Both the position numbers and the translations under genes were made by a program. The notes beneath the pieces were generated by a model. That model did no database searches and was not told the DNA's origin. It saw nothing but the letters and a program-made list of their open reading frames with translations. From Bispira polyomma (Eukaryota): DNA of 64,000 nt. Location of the stretch: contig OZ287754.1 of NCBI GenBank assembly GCA_965649765.1, forward strand, positions 24,800,001 through 24,864,000, given 5' to 3'. Shown in pieces: positions 1 to 61,694 of the stretch (its first letter is position 1; each line of letters opens with the position of its first letter).

Positions 1-3000
1 TTTTAAAACAACAAGTACTCTTAAGAGACATCTGGATAAATGTTACAACAAAACTCGATACATATATCCAGGTGGGTTTTATCACCCTAGTAAAACCATT
101 TTTGAAAAGCTCAGTGGTTATGGTATTGAGGTTGAGACTAGTAGAAGGATTTATCCCTATTATACAGTTTTTGATTTCGAATCTATGTTATTAAAGAGGG
201 AGGGGGAGAACCAACAAATTCTAAATTGATTTACACTGTAGAACATCACCCCATCAGCGTTTCTATATGTTCAAATGTAGACGGTTACAAAGAAGCCAGC
301 TGTTTTGTAGAGGCAGATGTGGACAAACTACTTGAAAACATGGTTAGTTAACGAAATCAGCGAAAGAGCACTTATTTTAGCCACTGAAAGGTGGGCAGAT
401 GTAAGATAGAGAGTTTAAAGGGGGTTATTGTAGGAGGGGACTTTAAATGTAGTCATATAGAGTTATTAGAAAAAGAATTTGTAAGGTATATTAGACAAAT
501 TCCTGTGTTGGGATTTAACAGTGGGAAATACGATTTAAATTTAATTAAAGCCCAATTGGCGGGTCATTTATTTCAAAATAAAGACAGGGCAAATTTCACC
601 ATTAAAAGAAACAACAATTACTTATCTCTCAGTTCAAATAAGTTAAAATTCTTAGATATTAGTAACTATATTGCTGCGGGTGTCAAAATTTCTCAAGTGT
701 TATGGGGTAACAGAAACTAAAGGCTATTTTCCATATGAATGTTTTGATTCTATAGACAAGCTTAATTATAGAACATTACCTCCTTATGATGCTTTTTATT
801 CGACATTAAAGCAATGTAATGTTTTATCTGATGGAGATAATTATACTTTACTCCAGACTGTGTGGAAAGACAAAAACATGAGCACTTTTAAAGATTTTTT
901 ACAATGGTATAACAACCTAGATGTAGTCCCATTTTGTTCAGCAATCGAAAATATGCAAGAATATTATGTTAATAAGGGTATTGATATTTTTAAAAATTAC
1001 ATATCAGTGCCAGGAATAGCTAGAAAAATGCTTTTTGATTCGACAGATTGTAAGTTTTCACTTTTTGATGATAAAAATAAGGATCTATACATTACAATGG
1101 AAAATGGTATTGTAGGGGGTCCTTCCATAGTATTTCGACGTTACCACGAGGTAGATAAAACATTTGTGAGGGAAAATATAGATAAGCCTGTTAAACTTAT
1201 CGAGGGTCGGGATGCAAATAGTTTATATTTATGGTGTATTGGGCAAAAACTCGGAACAGGATTATTCGTAAGAAGACACAAAGAAACTGGTTTTAAAGGG
1301 GAGGTTCCAGTGAAATATCTAGAACAATATATTTGGTTAGATTATGAGGCAGAAAAAAATAATATTTATATACAACACGGTTTAAATAGTAACAAAGAAT
1401 TTCGTATTGGACCTTATTTAGTAGATGGTTATGACTCCAAAAACAAGACAGTGCGAGAATATTCAGGCTGCTATTACCATTATCACGAGGGGTGTTTTTT
1501 GACTAAGAATATAACATCTCCTAAATGGCACAAGAAAAAAGAAATATTTCACGAAAGAGAACAACAAAGGAGGGATTATATCACGTCTCTGGGTTACAGA
1601 ATAATTGAAATGAGATAGTGTGAATATCAGAATGAAATTAAACCGCTGACAGAACATATTAGACTCAAATATTTACCCCAATTTTATGGGAAACATAAAG
1701 GTAAGGTCTCTCTCACTAGCCTTATACAGGCTATCAAATCTGAGGACATTTTTGGTGCTATGGAGGTTGACATAGAGGTGCCAGACTCTTGGCCTGAGGG
1801 TACTAGAAGAAATGGGTTTGCTTCCCCTAAGCAGTATTTTGCTGAAATGTCACCCATATTTAGTCGAACGCAGATCCCTTTCAACGTTATTGGTTCACAT
1901 ATGCAAAAGCATGTGCAGAAATTTGGCATATCTAAAAAACCTAAAACATTATTGGTGGGGGGGATGAAGGCTGAACAAATTTTTTTAGCTACACCACTTT
2001 TAAAATGGTATTTAGACCACGGTATGAAAATTACTGAGATATATCAAGTTGTAGAATACGTACCCAAAAATTGTTTTGAAAATTTTACCTCTGAAATTTG
2101 TGACAGAAGGAGACGATATTAGCGCTGATAAGGCTATAATAGGGGAACTCTCTAAGCTACAAGCTAATAGTGCTTATGGTTCTACAATTATGTCTAAAGA
2201 AAGACATTTAGACATTAAATATGTAAAGGGCCTGGAGAGGCTACTTTACTAGTCAATAATCCGTCTTTTAAAAATTTAACAGAATTGAATAATGACATGT
2301 ATGAGGTCGAGAAATATAAAACCAAAATTAGCTTAGATTTACCTATTCAAATAGGTTATTTTATTTTACGATATGCTAAATTAAAACTATTGTCTTTTTA
2401 TTACGACTGTTTAGATCGTTATGTTGATTTTGAAATGTTAGAAACGGATACTGACAGCGCCTATTATGCTCTCAGTAAAAGATCCTTTGAGGAGAGTATC
2501 AGACCGGGGTTACGTTTGGAATATAGAAAAGATGTTTATGAATCTTGTAGAGATAATTTTAAACCTAAGTGGTTTCCAAGACTTTGCTGCCCTAGGCACA
2601 TAGCCTTTGATAAAAGAAGTCTAGCCCTTTTAAAGGTCGAGAGCCTTGCATCCAAGGCTATTTGTCTGTCTTCTAAAACTTATATAATGAGAGAGTTAAA
2701 TGAAACAGATAAAATATCATGCAAAGGGATTTCTAAGAAAAGTCTTAATAATGCAATGAAATTATTTGAAAATGTATTGAATACTCAAAAGCCACAAAAA
2801 TCTACAAATATGGGATTCAGAGCAAGATACAATACAATTTACACATACACTCAGGAAAAATTAGGTTTCTCATACTACTATATTAAAAGAGAGGTGTTAA
2901 AAGATGGTATTCGAACTAAACCCTTAAACATAATATTAAAACCTTGGTCAGACGATATTGTTATAGTTAAAAACAACCTTGATCCATTAGCTAATGGTTA

Positions 3001-3382
3001 TTTATTTGATATCAGTATAGGGGGTAATAAATATTCGAATATAATCAACTATTTTGATGAATATAAAAAAAAACATTATTTATCCCCTATATCAACCGAT
3101 TGTAGCAAGCTTAAGGAATGGGAGTGGTTCAAACAAAGAGATAACATTATGTATACATTATTACTTTATAAAATACAACAGTGTCCTCGTTTTGCAGATG
3201 CACTACATCAAACAAAAAAATCTTATATATCCTATAATGTAACAGATAATTTATATTGGAATGTTGGATTAAGTAATAATCTGGTGAGGGTTATAAATAG
3301 GGACTCATACCCGGGTCAAAATCAAATGGGAGAGTTATTAATGAAACTTAGAGATAGCGTTTTAATGACTGCATCAGTATGA
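1..3382 (+). pseudogene. Protein-primed family B DNA polymerase (frameshifted, internal stop) with an inserted nuclease-like domain and a C-terminal NADAR-like extension
   Basis: ExoI VFDFES (~170), ExoII GFNSGKYDL, ExoIII YNNLDV, PolA DANSLY, PolB KLQANSAYG (~2155-2180), PolC DTDS. Split across ORFs 391, 671, 1760 and 2285. Confidence 0.92.
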
Positions 3383-4011
3383 GTATCAAATTTGAAGATC
3401 CTGCTAGTATACTTATGTCTGGGTGTAGTAATTCAGGCAAGACCACTTTTCTATACAAACTCTTGGGCAATATGAGTGATATGTTTGTGAGACCTCCTAA
3501 GAAAATATTATATTGTTACTCCGTCTGGCAACCTATTTTCGATTCTCTTCAAAATGAAATTGACATCAGCTTTATTAAAGGACTGCCCGATCAGAGTGTA
3601 ATTGATTCTATGAATGATGGAAATCACAATATATGTGTCATAGATGATCTTCAAGAAGAGGTATCTGGTAATAAATTTATAGAAAAATTGTATACCACAT
3701 TATGTCATCATTATCACCTCACTGTCATTACTATTTTACAAAATTTATTTTGTCAGGGTAAAACGTTAAGAACTATTAATCTACATAGTCATTATTTAAT
3801 TTTATTTAAAAATCCTTGTGACATCAATCAAATAAAATATTTAGGACAGCAAACAGGTTTCAAAAAAACTTTGGAAGAAGCATATAAAGACGCAACCGAT
3901 GAGTGTTATAATTATCTGTTATTAGACTTGTCTCCACATTCGAGCACGCAATGCAAATTAAGAACACACATATTACCTGGTGAAGATACTGTAGTATATT
4001 TATCTAGGTAG
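3379..4011 (+). CDS. Polinton packaging ATPase (A32/FtsK-like)
   Basis: Walker A GCSNSGKTT, Walker B ICVIDD, downstream ITILQNLF and YLILFKNP motifs. Intact 210-aa ORF. Confidence 0.92.
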   Translation: MSIKFEDPASILMSGCSNSGKTTFLYKLLGNMSDMFVRPPKKILYCYSVWQPIFDSLQNEIDISFIKGLPDQSVIDSMNDGNHNICVIDDLQEEVSGNKFIEKLYTTLCHHYHLTVITILQNLFCQGKTLRTINLHSHYLILFKNPCDINQIKYLGQQTGFKKTLEEAYKDATDECYNYLLLDLSPHSSTQCKLRTHILPGEDTVVYLSR

Positions 4012-4034
4012 TGTAATAAAAAAAGCCTATAAAT

Positions 4035-4355
4035 ATGTCTGGAAGACTAAAAGCCGGGACAGATTTTATTAGATTTTTGTTAAAAACACACTTCAAACAG
4101 AGACATGTCATATTAGAGACTTTGAATGAAAAACAGACTGGAGTTATAGTAGAAATAATTCACAATATCCTACGTCTGAACCACTTAAAGAAGTATAAGC
4201 CTATTATTAATAGAAACCTCAGAGTTTGGAAAAAATTAACCAATAGGAAAATATCATGGAAGGATAAACAGAGGGTCATAAAAGGAAATAGTAAAAAAAT
4301 AGAGACTCTTATTGATTCGGTAAGGGGAGCTCTACTGTCTATATTAGACGTTTAG
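4035..4355 (+). CDS. Small basic Polinton protein of unknown function
   Basis: 106-aa Lys/Arg-rich ORF directly after the ATPase, in the same tightly packed orientation. Confidence 0.6.
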   Translation: MSGRLKAGTDFIRFLLKTHFKQRHVILETLNEKQTGVIVEIIHNILRLNHLKKYKPIINRNLRVWKKLTNRKISWKDKQRVIKGNSKKIETLIDSVRGALLSILDV

Positions 4356-4359
4356 AAGT

Positions 4360-4792
4360 ATGAATAAATTTGTTTTAGTACCTTATGAAAGATATAAAGT
4401 TTGGACAAATTCTAAACTAATCTCTACTGAAGAAAAGCATAGGGTAAATAAGGATAATAGCGCGGGTGAGGGTATTCAACAATCTTAATCTAAGGAAGAA
4501 AGTACATTAAATAATTCCATTGATAATAAAAGCAATGAATTTGAAACGAGTTCTGAATAAATCAGTGGAGTTAGAGACAAGATTATCAGATGCTGTTGAT
4601 ATAATAAAACCAGCTAAGGTGGTAAAAAAACACAAGCTTAAAACTATTATAAAAACCCCTCAGATTGGAAAGGGAGTAGATAATATTAAACTACCACCAC
4701 CAGGTTTGCCAGATAAATCGGGTAAATTAAAGTTAAAGACCACTAGGAGGGGTGCCTACACTGTCTGGGTTAAAAAATGGGAGAGGTATTAA
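4360..4792 (+). pseudogene. Disrupted basic Polinton protein (possible core protein)
   Basis: ATG at 4360 (MNKFVLVPYERY), stop/frameshift near 4490, C-terminal part with QIGKG and PPPGLP in ORF 4520-4792. Confidence 0.5.
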
Positions 4793-4874
4793 TATATAAA
4801 ACTGATCAAATTTAATATATTGAAGACTGTTGAACTTAAAAAAGGCTGTATTTTAAAATCGTAAGGGAGTAATA

Positions 4875-6008
4875 ATGGAAAAAAATAAGACCGATTATTT
4901 ACACGACCTATATTACAATTCTAAAAATTCAACCTCATTCAGCGGTTTCAATAAATTCTACACTTTTGTTAAAAAGGATAATAAATATCCTTTTACTAAG
5001 AAAGATATAAGAGAATGGATGGGTAAACAAGAGGCCTTTGTATTACACCGTCCAGTTATAAGAAAATTTAAGAGACCTGTTACCATAGCAGTTAAAAAGG
5101 ATCAACAGTGGAATACAGACACAGCTAATATGATCAAATTTAAGAAATACAATAAGGGCTACCAACATTTGATAGGTGATAGATAGCTTAACCAGATATC
5201 TGTGGACCTTTTCAATGCATGATCTCACAGGATTAGAAATGAAGGAGGGATTTAAACAATTACTGGGAGCCCACAAACCCCATTTTTTATTCTCAGATAA
5301 TGGGAGTGAGTACAAGAGCAAAATATTTTATAATTATGTTAAAGGACAAGGTGTACAACATTTTATGAGTACTAATGAGACTAAGGTAGCTTTGGCTGAG
5401 AGAGTGATAAAAACTATTAAATTAAGGTTGATTAGACGAATGACTGCTCAAAACAATTTTATATGGTATGATGGATTATCTAGCCTGACTGAGGCTTACA
5501 ATAATTCTTATCACAAAATTATTAAAACAACTCCGTCCAAAGCAAGAAATATGGATGATTACGATTTGTGGTCAAATCAGTACAGTATTGGTTATAATGC
5601 AAGGAGCAAAAAACATATGAAGAAGAAGACTGGGCCCTCACCACAAAAATTACCATATAAATATAGGGTGGGAGATATGGTAAAGGTAGCCTATTTATCT
5701 AGAACCTCTGAAAGAGAATACGACGAAAAATATTCAGGGGAAAATTTTACCATTGCTGACAGACATATAAATCAGGGTAAAGCGCAATATAAGATTAAAG
5801 ATCTCAATAATAAACTGATCGGTGGTAATTTTTTTAACAACGAATTTATATTTAGAAGGTATATGTAGATAATGAAACTACATATCGAATAGAAAAAATA
5901 CTTAAAAATCGAACTAGAGGGGGCAAAAAGGAATATTTGGTGAGGTTGGAAAATTATTCTCCAAAGTTTGACAGTTGGGTGACTGAAGAAGATATTAAAG
6001 ATATATAA
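4875..6008 (+). pseudogene. Retroviral-like DDE integrase with C-terminal chromodomain (frameshifted)
   Basis: QWNTD, SDNGSEY and AERVIKT catalytic motifs. Chromodomain YRIEKIL...EYLVR..NYSPKFDSWV in a shifted frame at 5880-6008. Confidence 0.92.
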
Positions 6009-6429: not shown

Positions 6430-6576
6430 TTGGAATAAAGTTTGTGAGAGTATGAGAGACGGGAAGTTAGCAATGGAAAGAAACCTATATATAATAGGAG
6501 AGCAGACAGGAGGGGGCACAAATGGGAACGATCTGGTAACAATAATTTCACCTACTGAGCAACAGGTGGATATGGC
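6422..6576 (+). pseudogene. N-terminus of a small Polinton protein with a QTGGG motif, cut by a deletion
   Basis: MVNW...QTGGG...ISPTEQQVDMA runs directly into major capsid sequence read in another frame. Confidence 0.45.
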
Positions 6577-7146
6577 CCTGCATTATACCCTTATTGGCAA
6601 AGTGATTTTAAAACGTTCACCATACCTAAAGGAAATATGATGTGGAGTGATGATGGAACTTTTCATGGAGAGGTGCCAAGCAAACTAATTGTAGGTTTTG
6701 TCCCTGGAGAAGGTTATAGCGGTAGTTATACAAAAAACCCCTTTAAATTTCATCACTACTATTTAAATTACTTAGAATTTAGCGTTGATGGTTTACCCGT
6801 TCCATGTCGCCCATTTAGACCTAGTTATGTAGAGGGTAGTATCAGTGCAAGACCCACATATACAACCGGGCATTATGCCGAATCGTATAATAGCCTATTT
6901 TATGGTAAATATGGTGAAAATGAAAACAATCTGATTAAATATACCGATTATCCTAACGGCTATTGTATGTACGTATTCAATATAGATAGTAATGTGAGCG
7001 GTCCACTAAAGTCGGAACGTAAAAAGGGACATACAAGGATAACGGTTAATTTTGGAAAGGCTTTACCCGAAAGTGTTACAGCTATATTATATGCTCGTTT
7101 TCCGGCTATGATCAGTATTGATGAGTCTAGAGCGATAGATCAATGA
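6577..7146 (+). pseudogene. C-terminal part of the double-jelly-roll major capsid protein
   Basis: Frame reads PALYPYWQSDFKTFTIPKG...PSKLIVGFV...YSGSYTKNPFKFHHY...VDG..VP..PF.P...ISIDESR. The N-terminal part is missing. Confidence 0.8.
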
Positions 7147-7589
7147 ATACCTCTCAATTAAGAGTTAAAATGTTGACTGATAATTATATCAGTCAATATT
7201 ACGGTGGGGTATATGCAGCAAATGAATTGCCCTTAAAATTAAAAAATTTACCTAAAATTATAATTGTTAATACCAAATCTTATCCACATCAGGGTGAGCA
7301 TTGGATAGTCATGTATGTAGATAAAAATCGAGTAGAATATTTCGATTCCTTGGCTGGTTTTATTCCAAAAAGTTTTGAAAATTTCCTTTTGAGACATCAA
7401 GATAATTATACCAAAAATACTACAAGGGTACAAAGTTATAGGTCTATGTTATGTGGTGAATATTGTTTGTATTATGCCTATCATAGATGTAGGGGTAAGA
7501 GCTATGTGGATATATTAAAAGATTTCGGTGATAATTATAATATTAATGACAAAAAAATAACCACCTTTTATGATACTAAATTTGGTTAA
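7143..7589 (+). CDS. Adenain-like cysteine protease
   Basis: Catalytic set GEHW (His), YFDS (Asp), and Q...S..CGEYC (oxyanion Gln, Cys). Intact 148 aa. Confidence 0.92.
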   Translation: MNTSQLRVKMLTDNYISQYYGGVYAANELPLKLKNLPKIIIVNTKSYPHQGEHWIVMYVDKNRVEYFDSLAGFIPKSFENFLLRHQDNYTKNTTRVQSYRSMLCGEYCLYYAYHRCRGKSYVDILKDFGDNYNINDKKITTFYDTKFG

Positions 7590-8055
7590 TATGAGTCAGT
7601 ATATGGGACAGATGCTATCATGTAGTTTTCTTTGTGTTACAAAGGGTTTCAGACTGATATAGAAATTATGTCATTCAGACTATGTTAAAATTGCTGACAA
7701 ATAGTTTTCTTTGTGTGAGGGAGAGTTTTAGTCTGATATCAAAATGACATCATTTAGTGTAAAGTTTATTTGATGACAAAGATTTATAGTGGGGATGTAA
7801 ATGGAGTAAAGAGACAAAAGGTTCTACTATTTACATAATGTAAATGTTAATCTATGACATAATGTAAAAAGGTGGGTGGGGAAGGGTGAGTTCTTATGAA
7901 ACAGATATTGGTGATGTAATTCAGGTAATGAGATAATGATATTATAAATAATAAAAGGTTAGGTAATGAGCTATAATTAGATTTCTAGGAGGGAAAAAGT
8001 GTATATATTGAGGGGTGAGAATGACTGAGGGTATAGATTCAACTGACTGATTAGA

Positions 8056-8742
8056 ATGGCTACTACAACTACAACTAGTAAAAATGGCAGGACAGGACAA
8101 GATGAGTCTGATTGTGTGGTGGCAGCATCATCTTCAAGTTTTAGAAGGAGGGGGGACGATATAGATAAAATGGAGGATCTTAGTAATAAGTTCCAAAATT
8201 TCCAGTATACTGAAGAATCCTTATGCATGTGTCGAGATTGGCTGGACTACAAACTCTACTACAATAGGCTGGATAGTTTCAAGGGTTGGCCCAGAGGGAT
8301 TGGTATCACACCTAAAGAACTAGCCAGAGGAGGATTCAGGTACAGCGGGTATGGAGACAACTGCGTCTGTCCTTGGTGTCATATGCAGCTCAAGAACTGG
8401 AACTATTTTGATGAACCGCTTAAACTAAATGCCAAACAGAACCCCAGTTGTGAGTATGTACAAACGGTGTCTCCTAGTACAAATAAGTATATAGAAAGGG
8501 GAAATTACAAGCTGTACCAAAACCGACTGGAAAGCTTCAGAGGTTGGAAAGTCAGCAACATAGTTAGACCAGAGAGATTAGCTAGAGCCGGGTTCATGTA
8601 TACAGGGTTAGGCGATAGATGTCAGTGTTTGTGGTGTTCTGTCATATTACATTCCTGGGATTATTTAGACGAACCTCTGGATGAACACAAGAAAAATTCT
8701 AAAGACTGTGGCTATTTGAAAATGATTCTGCATGATGAATAA
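8056..8742 (+). CDS. Inhibitor-of-apoptosis-like protein with two BIR domains and no RING
   Basis: Two repeats of RLxSF.GW...LARxGFxYxGxGD. BIR2 has the full CX2CX16HX6C; BIR1 has Asn in place of His. Confidence 0.9.
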   Translation: MATTTTTSKNGRTGQDESDCVVAASSSSFRRRGDDIDKMEDLSNKFQNFQYTEESLCMCRDWLDYKLYYNRLDSFKGWPRGIGITPKELARGGFRYSGYGDNCVCPWCHMQLKNWNYFDEPLKLNAKQNPSCEYVQTVSPSTNKYIERGNYKLYQNRLESFRGWKVSNIVRPERLARAGFMYTGLGDRCQCLWCSVILHSWDYLDEPLDEHKKNSKDCGYLKMILHDE

Positions 8743-9699: not shown

Positions 9700-10396
9700 C
9701 ACAAATACATATAAGCTGATCATATCTCCTGTGGGGGGCGAAAATGGGTTGAGGAGTTCAATCATCTCATATTTATTCGTTTGCCTATTAGTTATTCGTT
9801 TGCCCATTAGATATTCATTTTCCTACGAGATTTCTTAGAGGACAATAATGGTTGTATAAGTCGCTGTAGTGGTAGAGGGTGTAAGTGAGGTTCCTGCTTC
9901 ACATTCATCAAAGCGACATAATAATATATAGCACCCAATACTATATCAGCGCTTTGTAAAAGTTTTCAAATTTGGTAGTAACAACGTCCGCATACACAGG
10001 TCCATATAAAGTTGTGGGAGTGATAATGGACTGACGAGTTCAATCATCTCATATTTATTGGTTAACCTATTAGATTAATTGGGGTAGAATAGGTAAAACA
10101 TCTCATATCATATTTGTTTACCTATTAGATATTCTTTAACCTATTAGAGATAACTTGATGCTTTCCTTATATTCGAATAGAAGTCGCTTTTTTAAATTTC
10201 CTTTCCATCACCTATATCAGCGCTTTGTAAAAGTTTCAAATTTGAAGGTAACAACGTCCGCATACACGAGTTCATATAACGGCCTCATATTGCTGGGAGC
10301 GATAAAAGAGCGAAACTTTCCCCCCCATCTACTTGTACAGGGAGCGAAACTAATGAGCGAAATTACCCAGGCTCTTCTCTTACATCAACTACTACT
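9700..10396. repeat. Polinton subterminal repeats / probable right terminal inverted repeat
   Basis: Direct repeats ctatatcagcgctttgtaaaagttt...aacaacgtccgcatacac (~9941, ~10212) and gagttcaatcatctcatatttatt (~9755, ~10037), then the terminal ACTACTACT. Confidence 0.65.
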
Positions 10397-11242
10397 AATA
10401 TCTTTGGCTAATTTGGTGAGTTTATCATGATAGCTTGGAGAATGCTTCTGGATTGACCCTGCTTGGTTCTTGCTGCCCTGTCAACAACTGGGTTGGGATT
10501 AATGTTCATTCAAAGGAAAGCTAAGGTAAATGCATGCATTTACCCTAGCAGCAGCTTGGGTTAAATTTTGTCGTTGATGTTACTATGCTAACAAATAAGT
10601 ATTTGTTTTGTCTAAGATGAAATCTCATGGGCGCTGAAGGATGTACATGTCAGTTCCCGTGGTGGCCACATCACTGTTAAAGACAGATGTTTGTTTTAAT
10701 TTCCTGTTATTTTCGTTGTAAGGGATTTAAGGTAATCAACTGAGACCTTGGGAGATGACTGCGGAGGAAATGCATAATTATACAAATATATATTGAATGA
10801 GTGCCACAGGAAATATAAGGCAAGAGTTGTTCCTAATGAAATTGTCCCATTCTATACTGTGGGACAAATATATGCCAAAACTTCTACAGCCTATGTTGAA
10901 TTTTTACATGTAATTTCTGTGACAATAACTTATAATTCTAAAACGGCTACAGAAATTCAACATGACCCCAAAAAAACCCAAAATTTTACCCCCAAAATGT
11001 CAACCTATTGCATTGACAGAGTCCTGTTTTTAATTTATTTCACCATACTGTTTGTGAAAGGACTGAAACTGGTGCTCAGAATATTCCTACAGCTATGAAT
11101 ACCAAATAAAAAGTAGATAAAAGGTAAATAAAATAGCTAAATATATATAGTGCTAATATTAGAGTAGTATTTCTGTTCACTAGCGCTTTGGCGATGATAA
11201 TGAGACAAAAAAATATGTACATGTACAATATTTAGTTTAAAT

Positions 11243-42572: not shown

Positions 42573-43544
42573 TTAGGACAATGCATGTCTCACACGTTCC
42601 AATGTCTTACCAGCTACATTTTTGCCTGGCCATTTGTCTGGATTGAATATGTCTCTGCTAATCAGTGGTAATCCAACCCCCCAGAATTTGTCAAACATAT
42701 TTGCCTCAACTAGAGTATGCTTGCCTGTGGACAACAAGAAGGACTTTAACTGCTCATTCTGATGAAATTTAGCAAACATTCCTTCATACATATAGTCCGG
42801 AGCCACCTGGAACCATTCTGCCTTTTTGAAACCTCTTACAGATTTGGCCATCTGTTTAATCGTAACAGGGTCTTGGGCTTGAAGGATGCCTTCCGCTGTT
42901 TCCTTATCTTTAAAGTGAGTGGCTTTTTTGTACATCAAGTACTGCTCTGTTGATGTGAATACAATGTCCTCTGCATTAAACTTCGCGGGATGGTGGTTAC
43001 TTAACGGGGAGTTTCTAGTATAAAATGCTTGCACTCCACCATGCCTGGGTGTGAACACATTCTGAGGCAAAAGCAATGGGTTATCAATTGTGTCAATATT
43101 GTCACTAGTGTAAATCTTACCGCCTAGAATGATTCTGTCAACATTGAATCTTGGCTTTAAATCTGGATGTAGCTGAAGTGCTTTGAAGAAAATCGGAAGC
43201 AGCAATTTACGTCTCTCAACAACTTCTCTAGGAAAGTCCTCTTGCACAGTAACACTCATCGTGCGTAGATTCTTTTTTGCTTTCATTATCTTTTCCTTAT
43301 TGTGCCATTGCCAGACCTTTACAATCACTGGTCTAGATCTTCCTTCCATTCTTGGGCCAATAAAATGAGCCTCTGCGATATCCTGCTCTGTAACAGCAAT
43401 TCCCACTTTGGCAAGAATTTCTATAACAACATTGACAAGGTTTTGGGGAGTTGGGCATTGAATACCCAACATCCTAATATTATTTTTTCTTGAGTATGTC
43501 TCTTGCCTTAAATGTTGTTCCTTTAGACTTTTATTTTCTCTTTT
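42573..43544 (-). CDS. LINE ORF1 (end of coiled coil, RRM, CTD) fused to a C-terminal NADAR (YbiA/DUF1768) domain
   Basis: Frame is open to the truncation point (..ETYSRKNNIRMLGI, RPVIVK, VQEDFP..V.ERRK). C-terminal FY...PLSNH, FTSTEQY.M..KA..F.D, AKF.QN..L...LLSTG...LVEA...DKFWGVG, GKN..GK.LE.VR. Confidence 0.92.
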   Translation of the reverse strand, partial: KRENKSLKEQHLRQETYSRKNNIRMLGIQCPTPQNLVNVVIEILAKVGIAVTEQDIAEAHFIGPRMEGRSRPVIVKVWQWHNKEKIMKAKKNLRTMSVTVQEDFPREVVERRKLLLPIFFKALQLHPDLKPRFNVDRIILGGKIYTSDNIDTIDNPLLLPQNVFTPRHGGVQAFYTRNSPLSNHHPAKFNAEDIVFTSTEQYLMYKKATHFKDKETAEGILQAQDPVTIKQMAKSVRGFKKAEWFQVAPDYMYEGMFAKFHQNEQLKSFLLSTGKHTLVEANMFDKFWGVGLPLISRDIFNPDKWPGKNVAGKTLERVRHALS

Positions 43545-46078
43545 TAAATTGCAATAATAGCAGTGGCATAGTTAGTAAATCTAATGTTAGAACTAATAGC
43601 TATTCTGGAAGTAAAGTAGAAAACAAAACTAATGTCAATAACTCTGAGTATCATGTAATTGCTAGTAAAGAAGAAAAAATACAATGTGAAAGTACAGTGA
43701 AATTCTGGGAAAGTACAACTCAGAAAAGTCCAGTTCACGAATATATACACCAGGTTGGGCATTATGAAGTTCATAATGCACTAATATATAGTGATATTTC
43801 TGAAATTGAATGTAACATTTCTACTATAAACTGTATATTTGTGTGTCCACAAGATAATCGTGACCACCAGGTGGTATACTTGCACTTTCCAAAACATAAC
43901 AGCTGGTCAGGTTTCTGCTATGGGATAAAAAGTACCACAAGTGTTAGATATCAGCATTTAGCCAATTTACCAGGCTTTCAGTTAATGGTTACTGACAAAC
44001 AAAAGGTCAATATGTCTGTGCAAACTTGTTATCATGTATATCAGTATAATAATACTGACCGAGAACATGCTGGTCTCACCTTTCGAAACTATCACAGAGA
44101 CCTTACCAGCTACCAGAAAGATAATCACGATTATGTGCAATACATGTATAATATTACTGACATGCTTATTGAAAAGGATAATGTGATAATTTATGTTAAT
44201 AAAGATGAAAAGGTTGGAAAGTCCAAGGTGAGTAGCAAACGAGCGCACACTCCGCCTGTGGATCATGTCGACGGGTTGTTCAGCCCCGACACGGGACACA
44301 GTTCTTCTTCCAAACTAAGTGACATTAAGGACATTACAGACTCTTCCAAAAGTCTAGGCTTAATTAAACTTTCTAGAAAAACCTTCAATTTTGCTGGACC
44401 TGACAGGGATTCGGTTCAGATAGATAGTATAAGTAAAATGACTGATATAGCAAACATTATTAGAAGTACAGGGGTGTCCAACTATAAGCAGGTACGCATT
44501 CCAATTAAATCTCAGTTGAACATTAAGGCCTGGGAGGATATCACCCAGAACCACCCTGACAAAATAATTACACAATATTTAAAGTTTGGCTTTCCACTGT
44601 CATTCAGTGACTCCAAACAACTTAACTCACAAGATGTTACTAACCACCACTCTGCTTTGCAATTTCCTAAGGCTATTGACGAATATCTGAATAAAGAAAA
44701 GAGTAAGGGCGCCATGTTGGGTCCTGTGGCCAACATCCCAGATTCTCAATTCTACTGCTCACCCTTACTTACTAGGCCCAAAAATGGCAGTAAGAGACGA
44801 GTCATTCTTAACCTCTCTTATCCGGTAGGTAATTCAGTTAATGACAACGTTAGTCGGGGAATTTATGATGACACGGAATTCTCACTCAAATTCCCTAGTA
44901 TTGACAATATAACTGCAAGTATTCGGGACACTGATAACCCACTTATGTTTAAGGTGGACATGGCCCGCGCGTTCAGAAATTTAAGAGTCGATCCGGTGGA
45001 CGCCTTAAAGCTGGGTATCAAACATAACGACCAGTATTACGTTGACGCTGCCGTGGTGTTTGGCTGTGCCTACGGCAGTGCTATCTTTCAGCGATGTTCG
45101 GATATCATAGCAGATCAGATGAAAACATTGGGTTATAACCTTCATTGCTACATCGACGACTATGCTTGCATATGTCCGGAATCTCAGGCAAAACAATGTT
45201 TTGACCACCTCTGCAAATTACTGAATTACGTAGGTCTTTCAATGAATCCTGATAAGGTTTGTGCTCCCTCTACTAAGGTCACATTTGTGGGTATTGACAT
45301 TGACATTACTAAGGGAACAATCAGTATAACTAAAGAAAAAATTGCTGAAATATTTCGAACATGTGTCGATACACGGAAAATATCCTGGATATCTCGTACA
45401 AATTTTCAGTGTGTGCTAGGAAAATTGCTTTACATACACAAATGTGTAAAACCTGCCCGTTACTTTATTAATCGTGTCCTTTCAGTTTTTAGGGCTTCCC
45501 CTGGAGCCAAGCGCTTCAAAATTACTAAAAACCTTAAAAGTGATTTAGACTGGTTCATTAATTTTCTTTTTAATTACAACGGGGTCACATATATAAATCC
45601 TCTCCCAATTAAGGCAAACAAAGAAATGTATTTACCTGCATGCCTCACAGGTTTGGGGGGCATTTGGAATGACCAAGTTTACCACACACCTATCTATAAT
45701 GTTTACCAATATGACCTCCATATTACACAATTAGAAATGGTCAATATTGTAGTGGCTTTGAAAGTTTGGGGAGAAAATTGGGCTCACCAAAGGGTGACAG
45801 TCCATTGTGACAACATGGCCGTGGTCTTGGTCGTCCAGACTGGCAAAACTAGAGATCCATACTTAGCTGCTTGTATTCGCAACATTTGGTTGCTTACTTC
45901 AACACACGACATTACTTTAGAAATAGTACACATTAAGGGTAAAAAGAACATATTGGCGGATGCTTTGTCCAGAATCTATTCGGACAATCCTCCTAAACAA
46001 AGTATGATGCAGTTACTTAATCAGTATTAACGAAAACCAGTTCCAATTAGTCATTTTAATTTAAACCTTAACATATAA
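43545..46078 (+). pseudogene. RT-RNase H of YR retrotransposon 1 with a long N-terminal extension
   Basis: FKVDMARAFR, YIDD; RNase H LEMVN, HCDN, ADALSR. First RNase H Asp appears replaced (YLPAC versus HLDAC in element 2). Premature TAA at 46028-46030. Confidence 0.9.
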
Positions 46079-46084
46079 TTTCAG

Positions 46085-47039
46085 GTGCTACATCATCATC
46101 TGACACCTTAGGGAGGGCAGCCATTGACAGAATACATGCTGCTCGCAGACCTTCTACCACAGCAGCATACTCCAGCCAATTCAGAACATACTTGTCGTTT
46201 TTACAGTATGTCCAAATACAGGACATCACCGTCCACTCCGTACTAGCGTTTCTAGAGTATCTGACACAGAACAACATATCTCCAAAAGTGGTGAACAATT
46301 GTTTAGCAGGCATAAAGTTCATGTGTTTGAAGTATAATCTTAATCATACAGTGCTCCAACATAATTCCATTGCTCTGTTCACACGTAGCCTCACTCACAG
46401 TTCTTCTTTTAGACCAGCCCCTAAAGGAGTATTTGATGTCAAACAATTACTGTCAATTTCTGAAAATTGTGAAATACTTAGTGATCCCATACTCTACAGG
46501 GCCATATTTCTGGTAGCTTTCTATGGCTTCCTGCGCATGTTGAACATTGCCCCTCACTCCAGAAGGCAATTTGACCCTTCAAGGCACTTGCTGTGCCAAG
46601 ATTTGATATTTGGCCCTCCTGGGCTTCACATAATCATCAAGTGGGCCAAAAACATGCAGGACCGTTCATACTCGCACATGGTCCAATTACCAAAAATAAA
46701 AATACCACTCCTCTGCCCAGTATGGGCTCTACAGAACCTACTACAATCCAGGAAAATCTCAGATCACTCCCCATCTTTGTAACTGCATCTCCCCCGTACC
46801 ACCCCATAGTGGATTCACACGTTAAGGCAGCTTTGAGAACAGTATTACAACACATAGGTATAAATCATACCATACATGGCTTTCATACGTTCCGTAGATC
46901 CAGAGCTACCCTTGCTTTTAACAACAATATATCACTTCAAAACATCATGGCACACGGGCTGTGGCGAAGCTCTGCTGTATGGACACACCTACAAACAACT
47001 TCCCAAGCTGCCTCAATAATTCCTTCCACACTTTACTGA
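46085..47039 (+). pseudogene. Tyrosine recombinase of element 1 (frameshift near 46775, 3' end clipped)
   Basis: FYGFLR, KWAKN, HTFRRS, HGLWRS; catalytic Tyr appears replaced by His (VWTHL). Frame opens right after tttcag. Confidence 0.9.
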
Positions 47040-55600: not shown

Positions 55601-56577
55601 GGCTACATATATTTATTCTAAAATTTATTCTATTTTTTAACGATGTATAACATTGCTCATATCATATTATAATGTAGACATGACTAGAAAGGAGCAACAA
55701 GTAGTATGATTTTATTAGCATAATGTTTAATTCAGGAAATGAATAAAAGATAAATAGTGTTTTTATTACGTGATATTATGAAACTATAAATTTGAGGTCA
55801 TTAAGCCAACACTGACTATGAACGGTACTTTTCTCATCCCACATGTTCACAAACAATTTTTTTCAATAATAACCATAGAATTAGGAAAGCAGAGGGAAAT
55901 ATTACTTTTCATAACCACCCATAAAGTAAGAATTTGGACAAAAATGATATACCCCAGAGATACCGTTACCAATCTAGTAAAGCATAAAAGGCCAAAAAGC
56001 CTACAACAATGTTTAACCCCAAGAAGAATTTACAAGGGATACATACAAGGGCGGCAATGTAACGAGACAGAATCATCTTGAAAAAGCTTAAAGTTAGATA
56101 GAATGTTTCTATAAATGACATATGAATGATATGTCATTTTTACCAGCAAGCACACTTTAGTGGGCTGATGTGTTAGTTCTAAAACACATCTTTAAAACTA
56201 TTCTTGTTATACACTCAGTCCATCATAAACTGGACACTGACCAATCAGCATCCAACACACCTCTGCACAACACGACTACTATAGGGGTCTGTTAGTTCAG
56301 TCCAACATAAGATTAATTCAACCTTAAACACCATAGGTTATACCTACTTTTTATTTTCTTGTTTATTGGGTAACAACCAATTAAATTCAAACCCATCCAC
56401 CCATGACCGCTCCCCTCTACTTTCCACCATTATTAACTCGAGACTTGAACGAGCAACAACATATATTGCAAAAACGACTGGAATGTACATAGAATTTTAT
56501 TTTTGTTTGATTTTAGTTTGTTTTTACATTATACATTCAGTCTGACAATATATATACACTTTATATGAACTAAGAAG

Positions 56578-57942
56578 ATGGGGAAGACGGCGAAGAAGCC
56601 TCCTGTTACGCGGTCTACTACTACGAAGGTGAGGGGGAAGAAAACTAAGGGTGTTCCGACAGACGACGGTTCACAGGTAACTGATATCATAGCCTCAGAA
56701 GTACATGCCCAGCTCACCGCTCTAGCCTCTAGAGCTTCGGATCTTTCTTCAGATGCACTATCATCGATCATAACTACGTCCGGAGCTACTTATGTTCAGG
56801 CCACACCTCCACGTGCGCCTTTGAGTACAAGCGTTGTACCAGAAGTCGGGCTCTCTCTACCATTTAATTTCCAAACGCTTGGTAAAGATTCGGCTTATGG
56901 CGGGATCACACCACCACGTTGCCAGACTTTACACACAGATCAACAACTCCCTTCGGGTAGCGGGTCGACTTCAGACAACTCTTCACAAATGCTAGCCATT
57001 TTAAAGCGACTTGAGACTTCAAACGCCGAACTCGGCAAACGTATCGAACGGGTCGAGACTGCTCAGACTCAACAAACACTTCTCAATAGGCAGGTAGCAG
57101 ACGTCGCCGCAACTCAGCTCTTCACGGCGAATCCCAGTACTTCAGCAGTGGCTTCGGCAGGAGCGAACCCTGGCTTGGTTCACCAACTTCCGGTTCAACA
57201 CGAATTCGGCCGTGATGGAGTGGTTCCACAACTAGATACACTGAGGGCGATTCCAGCCATCCAAGCAGCTATAGCCAGACAGTTGGCTGGGTATGATGCG
57301 AATATACAGCGGGACATTTTGCAAGGTAAGCCAGTAAAACAAAAATCTGGTCGTTACAACAGTGCTGATATTTCAACAGCAGACCCCAAGTTTAGATGGC
57401 CGAATGAGGGGTGGGTCGGAGCGAATGCAAAACGTAAACCTACATTTGATGAACTTTCTTTGGCCCAATGGGCAGCAGGGCAAGTAAACAACGCTCTCTT
57501 AGTGACAGACTCGGTCGTGATGAAAGGTATGCTTCAACAGATAGTACATACACTCAGGGACGCGGCCGCTCTCCCCTGGCCGGTCGTCCGCACGGCATAC
57601 GGACACAGTATGCAAGAGGTAGAGGAAGGACGTCTCACGTGGGACAATCAAACGCAGTGGGCGCTAAATAGACTTAGCGCATCACAGACGGCATTAGTAA
57701 GCAGCAATACTAACAATGTCACTGGGGATTCGAGCAAGGGGAAACAAAGTAATGAATTCAAGACGATCTGTAAATTGTATAATAATGGGAAGTGTTCTTA
57801 TAAAGCTGACCATGCAAATTACCGTCACATTTGTTGGCATTGTTCAAAGACATTAGGCAAGGATGCTGTGCATCCAGAGTTTAAATGCTTCAAATTTCAA
57901 TCCAATTTGAACAAGAATCCAGAACTTAGTACGAATCGCTAG
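56578..57942 (+). CDS. gag-like ORF1 of element 2
   Basis: 454 aa; basic N-terminus, coiled coil, C-terminal CKLYNNGKC...H...HICWHC...HPEFKC. Confidence 0.9.
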   Translation: MGKTAKKPPVTRSTTTKVRGKKTKGVPTDDGSQVTDIIASEVHAQLTALASRASDLSSDALSSIITTSGATYVQATPPRAPLSTSVVPEVGLSLPFNFQTLGKDSAYGGITPPRCQTLHTDQQLPSGSGSTSDNSSQMLAILKRLETSNAELGKRIERVETAQTQQTLLNRQVADVAATQLFTANPSTSAVASAGANPGLVHQLPVQHEFGRDGVVPQLDTLRAIPAIQAAIARQLAGYDANIQRDILQGKPVKQKSGRYNSADISTADPKFRWPNEGWVGANAKRKPTFDELSLAQWAAGQVNNALLVTDSVVMKGMLQQIVHTLRDAAALPWPVVRTAYGHSMQEVEEGRLTWDNQTQWALNRLSASQTALVSSNTNNVTGDSSKGKQSNEFKTICKLYNNGKCSYKADHANYRHICWHCSKTLGKDAVHPEFKCFKFQSNLNKNPELSTNR

Positions 57943-60711
57943 GGACAATACCGTCAGCCAATCAGCGGAAATAGCAAGTTTAAAGGTAAGCAGAGTAATG
58001 ATATTAACCAATTTATTAACATTGAGAATAATGTTCCAAAACTCAATAAATGTAGGTATACAAAATTAAATTCTAACAATGCCAATAACGGTGATGTTCA
58101 AGGTATAAACAACTCTGAATGTTTACATTATGAGAACATTGGGAAAAATAAAAATGTCAGCATTCAGGCAACCGAGGAGTTTGAATGGGGGCATTATGAT
58201 AATTATGATATAGAATATAAAGATGTCATAGACACTGTTGAGAAGAATGGTGTAATAGATATAATTCAATGTGATCAGAATATTACAGACAATCTGAATA
58301 TGGGAAAACCAAATGGCATGAATTGTAATGATAAAAAGGTGATTATAAATGAACTTTGGCAGAATGTTGTTAGCCAACTTGACATGGTTAGTAAAGTAAA
58401 AATTTCAGTCACGAATTGGTATGCAATTTCTACATACGGGGGTGTTATGGCACCTGTAGTGCATATGTCTAGTGTAAGTAACGGCTTTTATTGTATATGT
58501 CATTCTGATACTGATAATTGTATGATCTATTCACCTACTGCCATAACCTTTACAGATAAATTGCAGATCATAGATTGTTATGAGACTGAGATTTGGTTGA
58601 ATCACAGTATAAGCAATGATGTAACACCATATAGTATGGTCATGCATTCTCACACTGATAAGCAACAGTCGGTCAATGACCATTACAATTATACTAAAGA
58701 TCTGCAATGCTGGGAGCGTTATGGCTATGATTATACTTCATACATTGAAAATATTATTGACACATTAATGTTGCAATCTGAGGTGTCAGATTATAGTTCA
58801 GATTTAGTAAATGATGATTCAATAAACTTAACTGATAGTACTACCAGGCAACAGCAGGTGAGTAATAACGACGTACCAGAAAAAGACGCATCCCTCTTCT
58901 TCGAAAATTGTGACAGTACATATATACATGAACTTAAAGAAGTTACCAGTTCTGGTGACATTGACATTAATGATCCAGATAAGAAAAAAGGCTTTCTTGC
59001 ACTTTCTAATACAAAATTTGAGTTCAATGGCCCTGATAGACAACCAGTGAACATTGATTCCATTGATGAGATGATTAGAATAGGCAAGGTAATTAGTGAC
59101 ACTCAACTTCCTAATTACAAACAAGCTAGATTTCCTATTGGTTCGGGGTTGAACCCAACTGCTTGGGAAGACATATTTCATGATTACCCTGATCAATTGA
59201 TAATACAATACATTAAGTTTGGCTTTCCTCTAAGTCTTACAAATCATAATAAGTTAAAGAACACAGAAATACACAATCATTTCTCTGCTTTACAATATAC
59301 CAAAGAAGTTGGTCAATACCTGGAGAAAGAAAAGAGTAAGGGAGCTATGTTGGGCCCAGTCAAAGCAATAAATTCCTCTCAACTTCATTGTTCTCCATTG
59401 TTAACTCGTCCCAAAGATATTGATAAAAGACGAATAATCTTGAATCTCTCATATCCTGATGGAAATTCGTTGAATGACAATGTTGATAAAATACACTTTG
59501 ACGGTGTAAAATTTAAATTAAAATTTCCTACTATTGATGACATCACACAGGCAATTATTAATACTGAAGAACCAACTCTATTCAAAATTGATATTTCGCG
59601 CGCGTTTCGTAACCTCAGAGTCGACCCAGCTGAGGCCATTAAGTTGGGCATACTCTGGAATGACAACTTGTACCTTGATCCGGCAATTCCCTTCGGCTGG
59701 GTACATGGAAGCGGGGCATTTCAGCGTTGTTCAGACACAGTCGCTTACTTTATGAGAAAATCCGGTTTTAACTTATTATGCTACATCGATGATTATATAT
59801 GTATAGTACCTAAATCCAAGGCTCAGCAGGGTTTTGAAATTCTTATAGATCTCTTGACAAAACTAGGTCTACCCATGAATAGTGAAAAACTCACTACTCC
59901 CACCTGTAACATTACATGTCTAGGTATAGACATAGACGTGCAGGAAGGTACTATTTCTATAACTAAGGAAAAAATTACTCAAATTTGGAACCTTTGTTTA
60001 GAAATATATAACAAAAAATTCATTTCCAAAAATAAATTTCAATCCCTTTTAGGCAGTTTACTTTACATACATAAATGTGTCAAACCAGCGCGTACTTTTA
60101 TAAATAGACTGTTAATGGCGTTTAGAGGTAATACAGACAAACGTATAAAGATCGATACTGCTATGAAAAACGATTTACAATGGTTTCTAACATTTCTCCC
60201 AGTTTATAATGGCATCACATATATTCAGCCTACCATCATTCAACACGCGAACGAACTGCATCTTGACGCTTGCCTTACTGGCTGCGGAGGAATCTGGGGT
60301 GAACAGATATACGCAACCCCTATTCATAACCTTTACAACAGAGATCTCAACATAGCACATTTAGAAATGTTGAATATCATTATTGCAGTAAGAATATGGG
60401 CTAATGACTGGGCCCACAGCAAACTTAATATTCATTGTGACAATATGGCTGTAGTATTGGTTGTCGGATCACAGAAAACCAGAGACGACTTTTTGGCACT
60501 CTGCTTAAGAAATTTATGGCTGATAGCAGCAACATTCGACATAACACTCACCATCGAACACATCCCTGGTAAGCAAAACGTTATAGCTGACGCTCTTTCA
60601 AGGATTTACTCAGCTCATCCACCTCCTTTGGAAATGTTAAATACACTCAATAACAAATTCCAGTGGAAACAAGTCACACTGGAACACTTTAATCTCAATT
60701 TATTTGTTTAA
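57943..60711 (+). CDS. RT-RNase H of element 2, in frame with gag after a single TAG (first ATG at 58300)
   Basis: No stop codon from 57943 to 58299. FKIDISRAFR, PFG, YIDD; RNase H HLDAC, LEMLN, HCDN, ADALSR. Confidence 0.92.
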   Translation, partial: GQYRQPISGNSKFKGKQSNDINQFINIENNVPKLNKCRYTKLNSNNANNGDVQGINNSECLHYENIGKNKNVSIQATEEFEWGHYDNYDIEYKDVIDTVEKNGVIDIIQCDQNITDNLNMGKPNGMNCNDKKVIINELWQNVVSQLDMVSKVKISVTNWYAISTYGGVMAPVVHMSSVSNGFYCICHSDTDNCMIYSPTAITFTDKLQIIDCYETEIWLNHSISNDVTPYSMVMHSHTDKQQSVNDHYNYTKDLQCWERYGYDYTSYIENIIDTLMLQSEVSDYSSDLVNDDSINLTDSTTRQQQVSNNDVPEKDASLFFENCDSTYIHELKEVTSSGDIDINDPDKKKGFLALSNTKFEFNGPDRQPVNIDSIDEMIRIGKVISDTQLPNYKQARFPIGSGLNPTAWEDIFHDYPDQLIIQYIKFGFPLSLTNHNKLKNTEIHNHFSALQYTKEVGQYLEKEKSKGAMLGPVKAINSSQLHCSPLLTRPKDIDKRRIILNLSYPDGNSLNDNVDKIHFDGVKFKLKFPTIDDITQAIINTEEPTLFKIDISRAFRNLRVDPAEAIKLGILWNDNLYLDPAIPFGWVHGSGAFQRCSDTVAYFMRKSGFNLLCYIDDYICIVPKSKAQQGFEILIDLLTKLGLPMNSEKLTTPTCNITCLGIDIDVQEGTISITKEKITQIWNLCLEIYNKKFISKNKFQSLLGSLLYIHKCVKPARTFINRLLMAFRGNTDKRIKIDTAMKNDLQWFLTFLPVYNGITYIQPTIIQHANELHLDACLTGCGGIWGEQIYATPIHNLYNRDLNIAHLEMLNIIIAVRIWANDWAHSKLNIHCDNMAVVLVVGSQKTRDDFLALCLRNLWLIAATFDITLTIEHIPGKQNVIADALSRIYSAHPPPLEMLNTLNNKFQWKQVTLEHFNLNLFV

Positions 60712-60717
60712 TTGTAG

Positions 60718-61694
60718 GTTCTACCAACATCAGCAGCAGCTTTATACCCTCTGCTTGGGCCAGGATTGATACAGCCATCAGGCCAAAGACTGCTAGCACA
60801 TATAAAGCACAATTTAATACTTTCCTGTCCTTTAATCACTTTGTGGGCATTTCCGAGGTAACAGTTCATTCAGTGTTAGTATTTCTAGAATATCTGGTTC
60901 AGGCAGGGTTATCACCTGGTGCAATAAACAACTATGTAGCAGCTATTAAATACATGACACAAAAATTCCAACTAGATACCACTCCTTTATCTCATAAGTA
61001 CATACAGCTTTTCTTGAGAAGTTTGACTCATAATTCAACTTTCAAGCCTAAACATAAAGGCATTTTCAGCATACAACAGTTAGCCAGCATATCTAAAGCA
61101 TGTGACATTTTACACGATCCACCACTATTTAGGGCCATTTTTCTGCTGGCATTTTTTGCCTTCTTAAGGCTTTCTAATATAGCATCACATTCTAGGGCTT
61201 CATTTGATCCTACAAGACAATTCCTCAGACAGGATCTATTGTTTATTCCACCTGGAGCCCATATTACATTAAAATGGGCAAAAAATCTACAGAATAGATC
61301 TGATACACACAACATACAGATTCCTCAATTGCAGAACTTGGTGTCATGTCCAGTCCTGGCTTTGAGGAAACTACTAGCTTCCAGGGATTTACCTCCTCAT
61401 GCACCTTTATTTGCATCAGCTACTCCACCTTTTTACCCAATAGTGGATTCTCACGTGAGGGCAGCCCTTCAAAAAATATTACAACACATTGGGATAGAAT
61501 ACAAATTTCATGGATTTCACACATTCAGGCGATCAGGCGCCACATACGCATTCAATAATAATGTTTCACTACAGAATATTATGTCACACGGCTTATGGAG
61601 ATCCTCAGCAGTGTGGACTTATCTACAACAAACTTCAGAAGCAGCTTCTGTAGTTCCCCTCACGTTCGCTTCCACCATTCCTTCTTTCTCTTAG
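60718..61694 (+). CDS. Tyrosine recombinase of element 2 (no initiating ATG; probable spliced exon)
   Basis: FAFLRLSN, KWAKN, HTFRRSGAT, HGLWRS, VWTY: complete catalytic set. Frame opens after ttgtag at 60717. Confidence 0.92.

Follow-up and report, generated by a model that had tools for sequence, protein, structure and literature searches.

Polymerase-NADAR gene of a Bispira polyomma Polinton

We analysed a stretch of 64,000 nucleotides from Bispira polyomma (contig OZ287754.1 of GCA_965649765.1, positions 24,800,001 to 24,864,000 of the forward strand), hereafter the window, in which the DNA polymerase (pPolB) of a Polinton mobile element carries an additional C-terminal domain. A single stop-free frame on the forward strand (2219-3382) leads from the C-terminal part of pPolB through KREVLKDGIRTKPLNIILKP into a tail of 145 amino acids (aa; 2945-3379), which is closed by the stop codon at 3380-3382. 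The polymerase part of this frame (2219..2944, +) was recognised by its motif C (TDTDS), its CKG motif and the thumb end PLNIILKP, a motif at which, or soon past which, unfused relatives stop. The tail with its stop codon (2945..3382, +) was assigned to a catalytically degenerate NADAR domain of the YbiA type on the basis of Pfam, an AlphaFold2 model and a table of residues. The exonuclease and palm parts of pPolB lie upstream (1..2218, +) and are interrupted by stops and frameshifts, which leave pieces at 388-720, 656-1618, 1619-2122 and 2219-3382; the gene itself starts before the window (L037:8451 onward, in a locus 10 kb upstream).

The element that hosts the fused gene is a Polinton of approximately 19,660 bp. 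An inverted match of 213 bp (97.7% identity) joins the upstream locus L037, where the left terminal repeat begins at position 739, to window positions 10189-10401, and the right terminal inverted repeat was accordingly placed at 10189..10396 (no strand). Both ends of the element are flanked by the 6-bp target-site duplication AATATC, the right copy of which lies at 10397-10402. Terminal inverted repeats and a 6-bp target-site duplication are defining features of Polintons. In addition, the predicted structure of the catalytic part of an uninterrupted copy showed its best match to phi29 polymerase (E 3.4e-12). An initial annotation of this DNA had described a Polinton-type polymerase whose frame runs about 145 aa past the usual pPolB end; the repeats, the target duplication and the phi29-like model agree with the first point and the uninterrupted frame with the second, while the breaks in the upstream part of pPolB were absent from that annotation.

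Within the broken part of pPolB we found a Vsr-like endonuclease insertion (1400..1615, +, limits approximate), for which an alignment-built profile matched the Escherichia coli Vsr structures 1vsr, 1odg and 1cw0 (E 3e-05 to 5e-05). This insertion type is known from the pPolB2 of mollusc and marine-nematode Polintons (10.1101/2023.08.22.554363), which share the exonuclease, the palm and the Vsr-like insertion with the polymerase described here; the C-terminal NADAR is the difference, and neither NADAR nor YbiA occurs in the main text of that report as available. The insertion suggests that the window polymerase belongs to this Vsr-containing pPolB2 group. Between the window's polymerase-NADAR and L021, a copy elsewhere in the same genome, the synonymous divergence (dS) was 0.01-0.02 and the ratio of nonsynonymous to synonymous divergence (dN/dS) was near 1, so the window copy appears to be a young insertion in neutral decay. 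A stretch 403 kb upstream (L001, G000:C7:24398318-24401752) matches window 1445-4879 at 99.97% identity and shares its breaks; it seems to have arisen by a recent segmental duplication or as a duplicate in the assembly.

NADAR fold of the tail

The tail scored 48.2 bits with the Pfam NADAR profile (PF08719), above the curated cut-off of 35.1 (E 1.8e-12), in a match covering profile positions 76-161 of 163, and BLASTP aligned the tail with the NADAR of a long interspersed nuclear element (LINE) in the same window at E 2e-09 across 92 aa. The six pairs of motifs that had initially been aligned by eye between these two domains were all present in both sequences. A HMMER search of 1.84 billion representatives returned 261 matches to the tail at E <= 0.001; the LINE NADAR was also matched by 145 of the 150 that were listed, and a Pfam NADAR domain was present in 29 of 30 scanned matches, the exception (P0009) being a repeat protein. 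The sequence of the tail alone found no NADAR among PDB sequences with phmmer, whereas profiles did find NADARs.

The AlphaFold2 model of the tail was of high confidence (predicted local distance difference test, pLDDT, 92.6; predicted template modelling score, pTM, 0.87). Only two PDB structures matched it at E <= 0.001, and both are NADARs: 8bau from Phytophthora nicotianae (Z 13.8, root-mean-square deviation 2.8 over 138 residues) and 2b3w, E. coli YbiA (Z 11.9, deviation 3.2 over 128 residues), the next structure having a Z of 3.6. Among predicted viral structures there were 26 matches, and the named ones were mostly NADAR proteins. Canonical NADARs were part of the alignment behind this model. 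To check the fold independently of them, we built a profile from 91 rows of Polinton polymerases; it found 8bau (E 1e-10) and YbiA (E 1.8e-09), and a model built from Polinton polymerase rows alone showed the same structural elements in the tail. The profile matches and the models together confirm that the tail is a NADAR-family domain, as the initial annotation had expected of its fold.

In this last model, the first NADAR strand begins approximately 5 residues past the thumb end and the junction has a pLDDT of 94-96, so the polymerase and the NADAR are predicted to be joined without a loose linker. The model, of 1,090 aa of polymerase plus tail, reached a pTM of 0.84, a figure that does not distinguish a docked from an undocked tail. 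In an alignment of 51 rows (approximately 41 effective), too shallow for a reading, tail and thumb showed no clear inter-domain covariation.

Distribution of the fusion

In the same genome, polymerase and tail share one open frame in L021 (1,659 aa) and in L022 (1,669 aa). Other subfamilies are represented by L023 (1,256 aa, with a tail approximately 50% identical) and L036 (511 aa, 42%). The 60 residues around the junction were free of stops in 32 of 39 locus rows, corresponding to 29 of 36 distinct places when three places counted twice are merged, and no junction stop was shared in four subfamilies whose tails are 42-88% identical. The fusion is thus found in intact copies without a separating stop, in line with what the initial annotation had supposed.

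At least 150 matches to the tail lie in this genome, approximately 100 of them in one tandem array (L035, G000:C5:44912791-45031215). The units of this array are roughly 1,150 bp long, each holding a NADAR-tail fragment and a stop, and the array appears to be a satellite derived from the tail part of the Polinton. At another locus (L003/L004, G000:C9:50141568-50146940), two near-identical polymerase-NADAR pieces form a head-on inverted duplication.

An alignment search outside this genome yielded 159 homologous proteins, 120 of which were listed. Among these 120, 61 from other datasets had the polymerase end and a NADAR-like tail in one chain, 38 ended no more than 25 residues past the thumb motif, and 21 had other or cut-off tails. 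The query biases this search towards fused forms, and in the least secure of the fused calls the match is to the last motif only (E 1e-03 to 1e-06). In metagenome loci chosen by polymerase patterns alone, 7 of 80 were fused in frame and 2 more had a broken NADAR behind the polymerase; one of these loci (L043) encodes a fused frame of 1,730 aa followed by an ATPase, and another (L070) a fused frame of at least 1,609 aa. In viral contigs, none of 120 pattern matches was confirmed. Long fused relatives were also sought with two word-seeded protein searches, which returned nothing, a weak negative, as the alignment search found many shorter ones. Chance read-through of the polymerase frame into adjoining DNA was ruled out by the family match, the selection on the tail described below and the spread of the fusion. 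On the evidence of these sequence comparisons, the fusion is confirmed as real, widespread and under selection. Outside the polymerases, the Saccostrea protein XP_062576620.1 (P0020) combines a tetraspanin-like region with a NADAR that lacks the middle hairpin, like the window tail; it may be a gene-model fusion.

Catalytic and ligand-binding residues

The structure of the Phytophthora NADAR with ADP-ribose (8bau; PMC11543638) provided the reference for the residues of the tail. According to that report, E43 and E125 bind the distal ribose, K50, R79, W89, R93, W133 and D130 contact the pyrophosphate, and Y84, G78, V81 and K50 contact the adenine, the segment with K75, G78, R79, V81, Y84 and D86 both holding the adenine and shielding the pyrophosphate. 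It also describes that mutation of the E125 or K50 equivalent in the E. coli C7 NADAR abolishes efficient hydrolysis and that Glu, Asp or His is found at the catalytic site of NADAR subfamilies. We transferred the 8bau numbering through an alignment of 8bau with the LINE NADAR and through multiple alignments.

In the window tail, E43 is replaced by Ile, E125 by Tyr and D130 by Asn, and the K75 and R79 columns hold Ile and Cys. The E43 column has Asn in L022, Glu in L023 and His in L036, and the E125 column has Tyr in the window and in all three of these copies. Two positions ahead of E125 stands an Ile, which leaves no shifted acid at that site; in the window family, W133 is preceded by an Asp at a distance of four residues. 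The window tail has 27 residues from the E43 column to the W89 column, where an intact fused homologue has 42 and the LINE NADAR 44, and the adenine-holding segment is shortened by 15-17 residues. The phosphate-contacting residues K50, W89, R93 and W133 appear to remain in the window tail together with the core of the fold; K50 is Lys in the window and L022, beside an alignment gap that makes the register less sure, and is not found in L023 or L036. Thus, compared with the YbiA-subfamily hydrolases 8bau (PMC11543638) and 2b3w, the tail shares the fold, W89, R93, W133, K50 and the G-x-N-x-x-G motif, but it lacks E43, E125, D130, K75 and R79, has a shorter middle hairpin and is attached to a DNA polymerase.

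We also compared 50 complete fused tails, that is, external tails reaching the C-terminal motif, with 97 unfused NADARs. The triad of E43, K50 and E125 was complete in only two fused tails (P0023 and P0169) versus 60 of the unfused NADARs, and an acid or His occupied the E125 column in 2/50 versus 79/97. Tyr recurred in this column in 15 of the 50 fused tails, and other lineages had Asn, Val, Phe, Cys or a gap. The C-terminal G-x-N was found in all 50 (by definition of the set) and W89 in 46, while the central helix was missing in 16. With four added rows, the 50 tails formed 36 clusters at 50% identity, with a median identity of 20% among clusters; the structural core is the part that the lineages have in common. 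In one fused lineage (P0190-P0239), the central helix is gone, and all that remains of the NADAR is its first strands and its last W..G..PGQN..G motif; several members of this group end in a DHDY-like motif.

Because both distal-ribose Glu residues are replaced and the adenine hairpin is lost, a role of the window tail as an ADP-ribose eraser seems unlikely, and one as a reader doubtful. The initial annotation had noted that the Glu residues of STEQY and LVEA are absent and that the middle of the domain is shorter, as the substitutions by Ile and Tyr and the residue counts confirm. Its suggestion of a possibly dead domain also holds with E43, E125 and D130 lost, and the catalytic residues whose conservation it proposed to check in fused relatives were, as a triad, mostly not conserved. 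Its proposal of an eraser or reader of ADP-ribosylated template bases fared less evenly: the eraser would fit the few homologues that keep the triad and does not fit the window family, and the reader is weakened by the short adenine segment and the loss of K75 and R79 while retaining the phosphate contacts in its favour.

Selective constraints on the tail

The dN/dS of the tail between the window and L022 was 0.31 (pN/pS 0.34, bootstrap 0.16-0.70). It was 0.43 for L021 versus L022 and 0.30-0.34 in comparisons with L023 and L027 (0.32 for the window versus L023), and comparisons with L036 gave 0.19-0.25 (0.19 for the window) with dS near saturation. For the adjoining 190 polymerase codons, values of 0.18-0.21 were obtained where dS was measurable. 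These estimates show that the tail is under purifying selection, with a looser constraint than that on the polymerase.

Evolutionary history of the fusion

To follow the history of the fusion we used quick trees throughout. The polymerase tree left out rows shorter than 140 aa, P0083 and P0003, and the NADAR tree left out heavily deleted and cut-off tails. In the NADAR tree, 32 fused domains needed 3 changes against 40 other NADARs, and a single clade of fused NADARs fit better than the free search (approximately unbiased test, p-AU 0.96). In the polymerase tree, fused and unfused rows interleaved, with 9 changes for 35 fused rows, and a single fused clade was not rejected (p-AU 0.17, LG+G4). 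A scenario of one old capture followed by repeated loss would fit. Capture from the LINE NADAR of this window was ruled out by an identity of 27% over 92 aa and by separate branches in the tree.

Under this scenario, an ancestor in the Vsr-containing pPolB group would have taken up an active YbiA-type NADAR directly behind the thumb, and the ancestral tail may have stripped host-added ADP-ribose from template guanine or cytidine near the fork. Two homologues (P0023 and P0169) still look active. Most lineages, that of the window included, would later have lost the distal-ribose Glu together with the adenine pocket, in part or entirely, while the core and several phosphate-contacting residues stayed.

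Other genes of the Polinton and other elements in the window

Downstream of the fused gene, the Polinton encodes a putative packaging-type P-loop ATPase (3379..4011, +), recognised from its sequence with weak Pfam AAA and Pox_A32 matches, the name being inferred from Polinton gene sets. The stop codon of the polymerase-NADAR frame overlaps the ATPase start codon (ATGA, 3379-3382), which may couple the translation of the two genes. There follow a retroviral-type integrase in two reading-frame pieces (4857..5868, +; Pfam rve E 0.0035, below the cut-off), a probable major capsid protein fragment (6559..7146, +), labelled by inference without a Pfam match, whose relatives lie close to pPolB, integrase and protease in metagenome loci, and a candidate adenovirus-type maturation protease (7131..7589, +; weak Pfam Peptidase_C5 match, E 0.038). 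A gene resembling two-BIR inhibitors of apoptosis (8047..8742, +; Pfam BIR 125 bits in 2 stretches) lies within the Polinton, and a BIR match was likewise found behind the polymerase at metagenome locus L061. In the part upstream of the window, short open reading frames (ORFs) on the reverse strand (L037:5151-7426) resemble secreted or single-pass membrane proteins and have no Pfam match, and a PC4-like ORF was found at L037:1294-2130 (E 0.003).

A separate element carries the LINE NADAR used above as a yardstick, a canonical domain at the C-terminus of LINE ORF1 (42576..43055, -; Pfam 144.8 bits) whose catalytic residues are intact in the alignment to 8bau. This ORF1 (42573-43571, -) has at least 150 family matches in the genome (2,147 candidates, of which 150 were scored). 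Reverse-transcriptase and recombinase-like ORFs were also found at 43478-47039 and 56569-61694 (+); they resemble what we take to be DIRS/Ngaro-type retroelements. NADARs on the Gypsy Pol of Ectocarpus and on the Tx1 LINE ORF1 of Crassostrea gigas have been published (PMC12477816), and the LINE NADAR of the window is of the type described there for the oyster Tx1.

Possible functions of the tail

NADARs reverse the linkage of ADP-ribose to guanine and cytidine, and guanine-modifying CARP-1 homologues are reported above all from bivalves, with further examples in cnidarians, sponges and other bilaterians (PMC12945103). In phages, ADP-ribose on DNA has been proposed to block polymerases, and polymerase mutations give escape (PMC11481870). 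The residues required for cutting are lost in the window tail, yet the domain is under selection, which points to a non-cutting accessory role. The preferred reading, to which we give about as much credence as doubt, is that the tail now acts as a non-catalytic accessory domain that would help the polymerase to hold DNA or to keep its shape. Since the core and the phosphate contacts are kept and the catalytic and adenine residues are gone, DNA-backbone binding or a structural role at the thumb would fit better than hydrolysis. Several observations weigh against this reading. The tail is absent from many close polymerases (the 38 of 120 listed homologues and most of the 80 metagenome loci), so it appears dispensable for pPolB as a class. 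R93, K50 and W133 are kept in only 14, 21 and 33 of the 50 fused tails, and therefore no binding surface is evidently shared across lineages. The charge is not uniformly basic either, with an isoelectric point of 8.5 in the window family and of 5.2-5.5 in L023 and L027; selection is weaker on the tail than on the polymerase (0.31 versus 0.18 for the window and L022); and the residue assignments come from sequence alignment rather than from a superposed active site.

A tail that binds ADP-ribosylated bases or host proteins without cutting them might aid the bypass of adducts or docking at marked sites, for which the pyrophosphate contacts of 8bau kept in the window family (K50, W89, R93 and W133) and the phage precedent of a polymerase block with escape mutations (PMC11481870) both speak; however, the replacement of both distal-ribose Glu residues, the shortened adenine segment, the loss of K75 and R79 and the absence of the central helix from 16 of 50 fused tails make such a reader unlikely. 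Slightly less likely again is that the tail serves as a decoy or as a module for binding proteins, inhibiting an ADP-ribosyltransferase of the host or bringing in a host factor, and rides on the polymerase to reach the replication site. Fast change at the surface around a fixed core, as in the 36 clusters with their median identity of 20%, can mark a host-facing module, the DarG C-terminal domain and phage AdfB act as antitoxins without catalysis (PMC11481870), and CARP-1 homologues are reported from bivalves and other animals (PMC12945103); on the other hand, every comparison between subfamilies gave a dN/dS well below 1, with no sign of positive selection on the whole domain, and no transferase family was matched by Pfam among the scanned ORFs of the Polinton. 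A search of the genome for Scabin-like transferases (PF22596) gave no match, and as its controls gave none either, it carries no weight.

We consider it improbable that the tail is a decaying vestige, tolerated only because it has to stay folded or because its stop codon shares nucleotides with the start codon of the gene that follows. The gradient from intact to heavily deleted tails, the many unfused relatives and the ATGA overlap with the ATPase would be expected of such a remnant, but dN/dS is 0.2-0.4 over a dS of at least 1, and four subfamilies share no junction stop, although one nonsense change is enough to remove a useless C-terminal domain. Least probable in our view, by a little, is an N-glycosidase that still works with rearranged chemistry, using other residues or another substrate. 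NADAR subfamilies do vary between Glu, Asp and His at the catalytic site (PMC11543638), Tyr recurs at the E125 column (15/50 fused tails and all four subfamilies checked in the genome) and the window family has the Asp four residues before W133; however, both acids and the adenine pocket are lost, the Ile two before E125 leaves no shifted acid, and the E125 column varies between lineages (Tyr, Asn, Val, Phe, Cys or a gap).

Relation to known systems and implications

NADARs have previously been found with or beside replication machinery, namely on the Gypsy Pol and Tx1 LINE ORF1 (PMC12477816) and in RNA-virus polyproteins and large DNA viruses (reviewed in PMC9503650). As described in these sources, the NADARs of the retroelements and RNA viruses are conserved YbiA-type domains, whereas the one reported here sits on the DNA polymerase of a DNA element and has mostly lost its catalytic residues. 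Extra domains on preplasmiviral pPolB are likewise known, as in pPolB-SF1 helicase and TP-vOTU-pPolB (PMC11161782, PMC12721341), with other pPolB fusions in 10.64898/2026.10.13.758929. The SF1 helicase and vOTU fusions differ from ours in having no ADP-ribose-related domain in these accounts, and 'ADP' does not occur in the available text of PMC11161782. No paper on a Polinton-NADAR fusion was found in the literature covered, with supplements, Repbase annotations and most subscription papers outside the search. The Polinton polymerase-NADAR fusion adds a new architecture to the protein-primed polymerases.

The role of NADARs in animals has been stated as open (PMC11125620). A bolder proposal, which we advance tentatively and regard as doubtful, is that an animal Polinton lineage joined an ADP-ribose eraser to its polymerase to clear host base adducts ahead of the fork. 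This would imply that invertebrates defend themselves against Polintons and LINEs by ADP-ribosylation of bases; the disarmed tails would then act as readers or decoys in this arms race, with the two intact homologues representing polymerases that have a built-in adduct-removing head. The fused tails form a series from enzyme to pseudo-enzyme, with intact and disarmed tails on the same polymerase scaffold. In one genome, two unrelated mobile elements carry NADARs, intact on the LINEs and disarmed on the Polinton polymerase, and this pairing points to base ADP-ribosylation as a possible invertebrate defence against mobile DNA.

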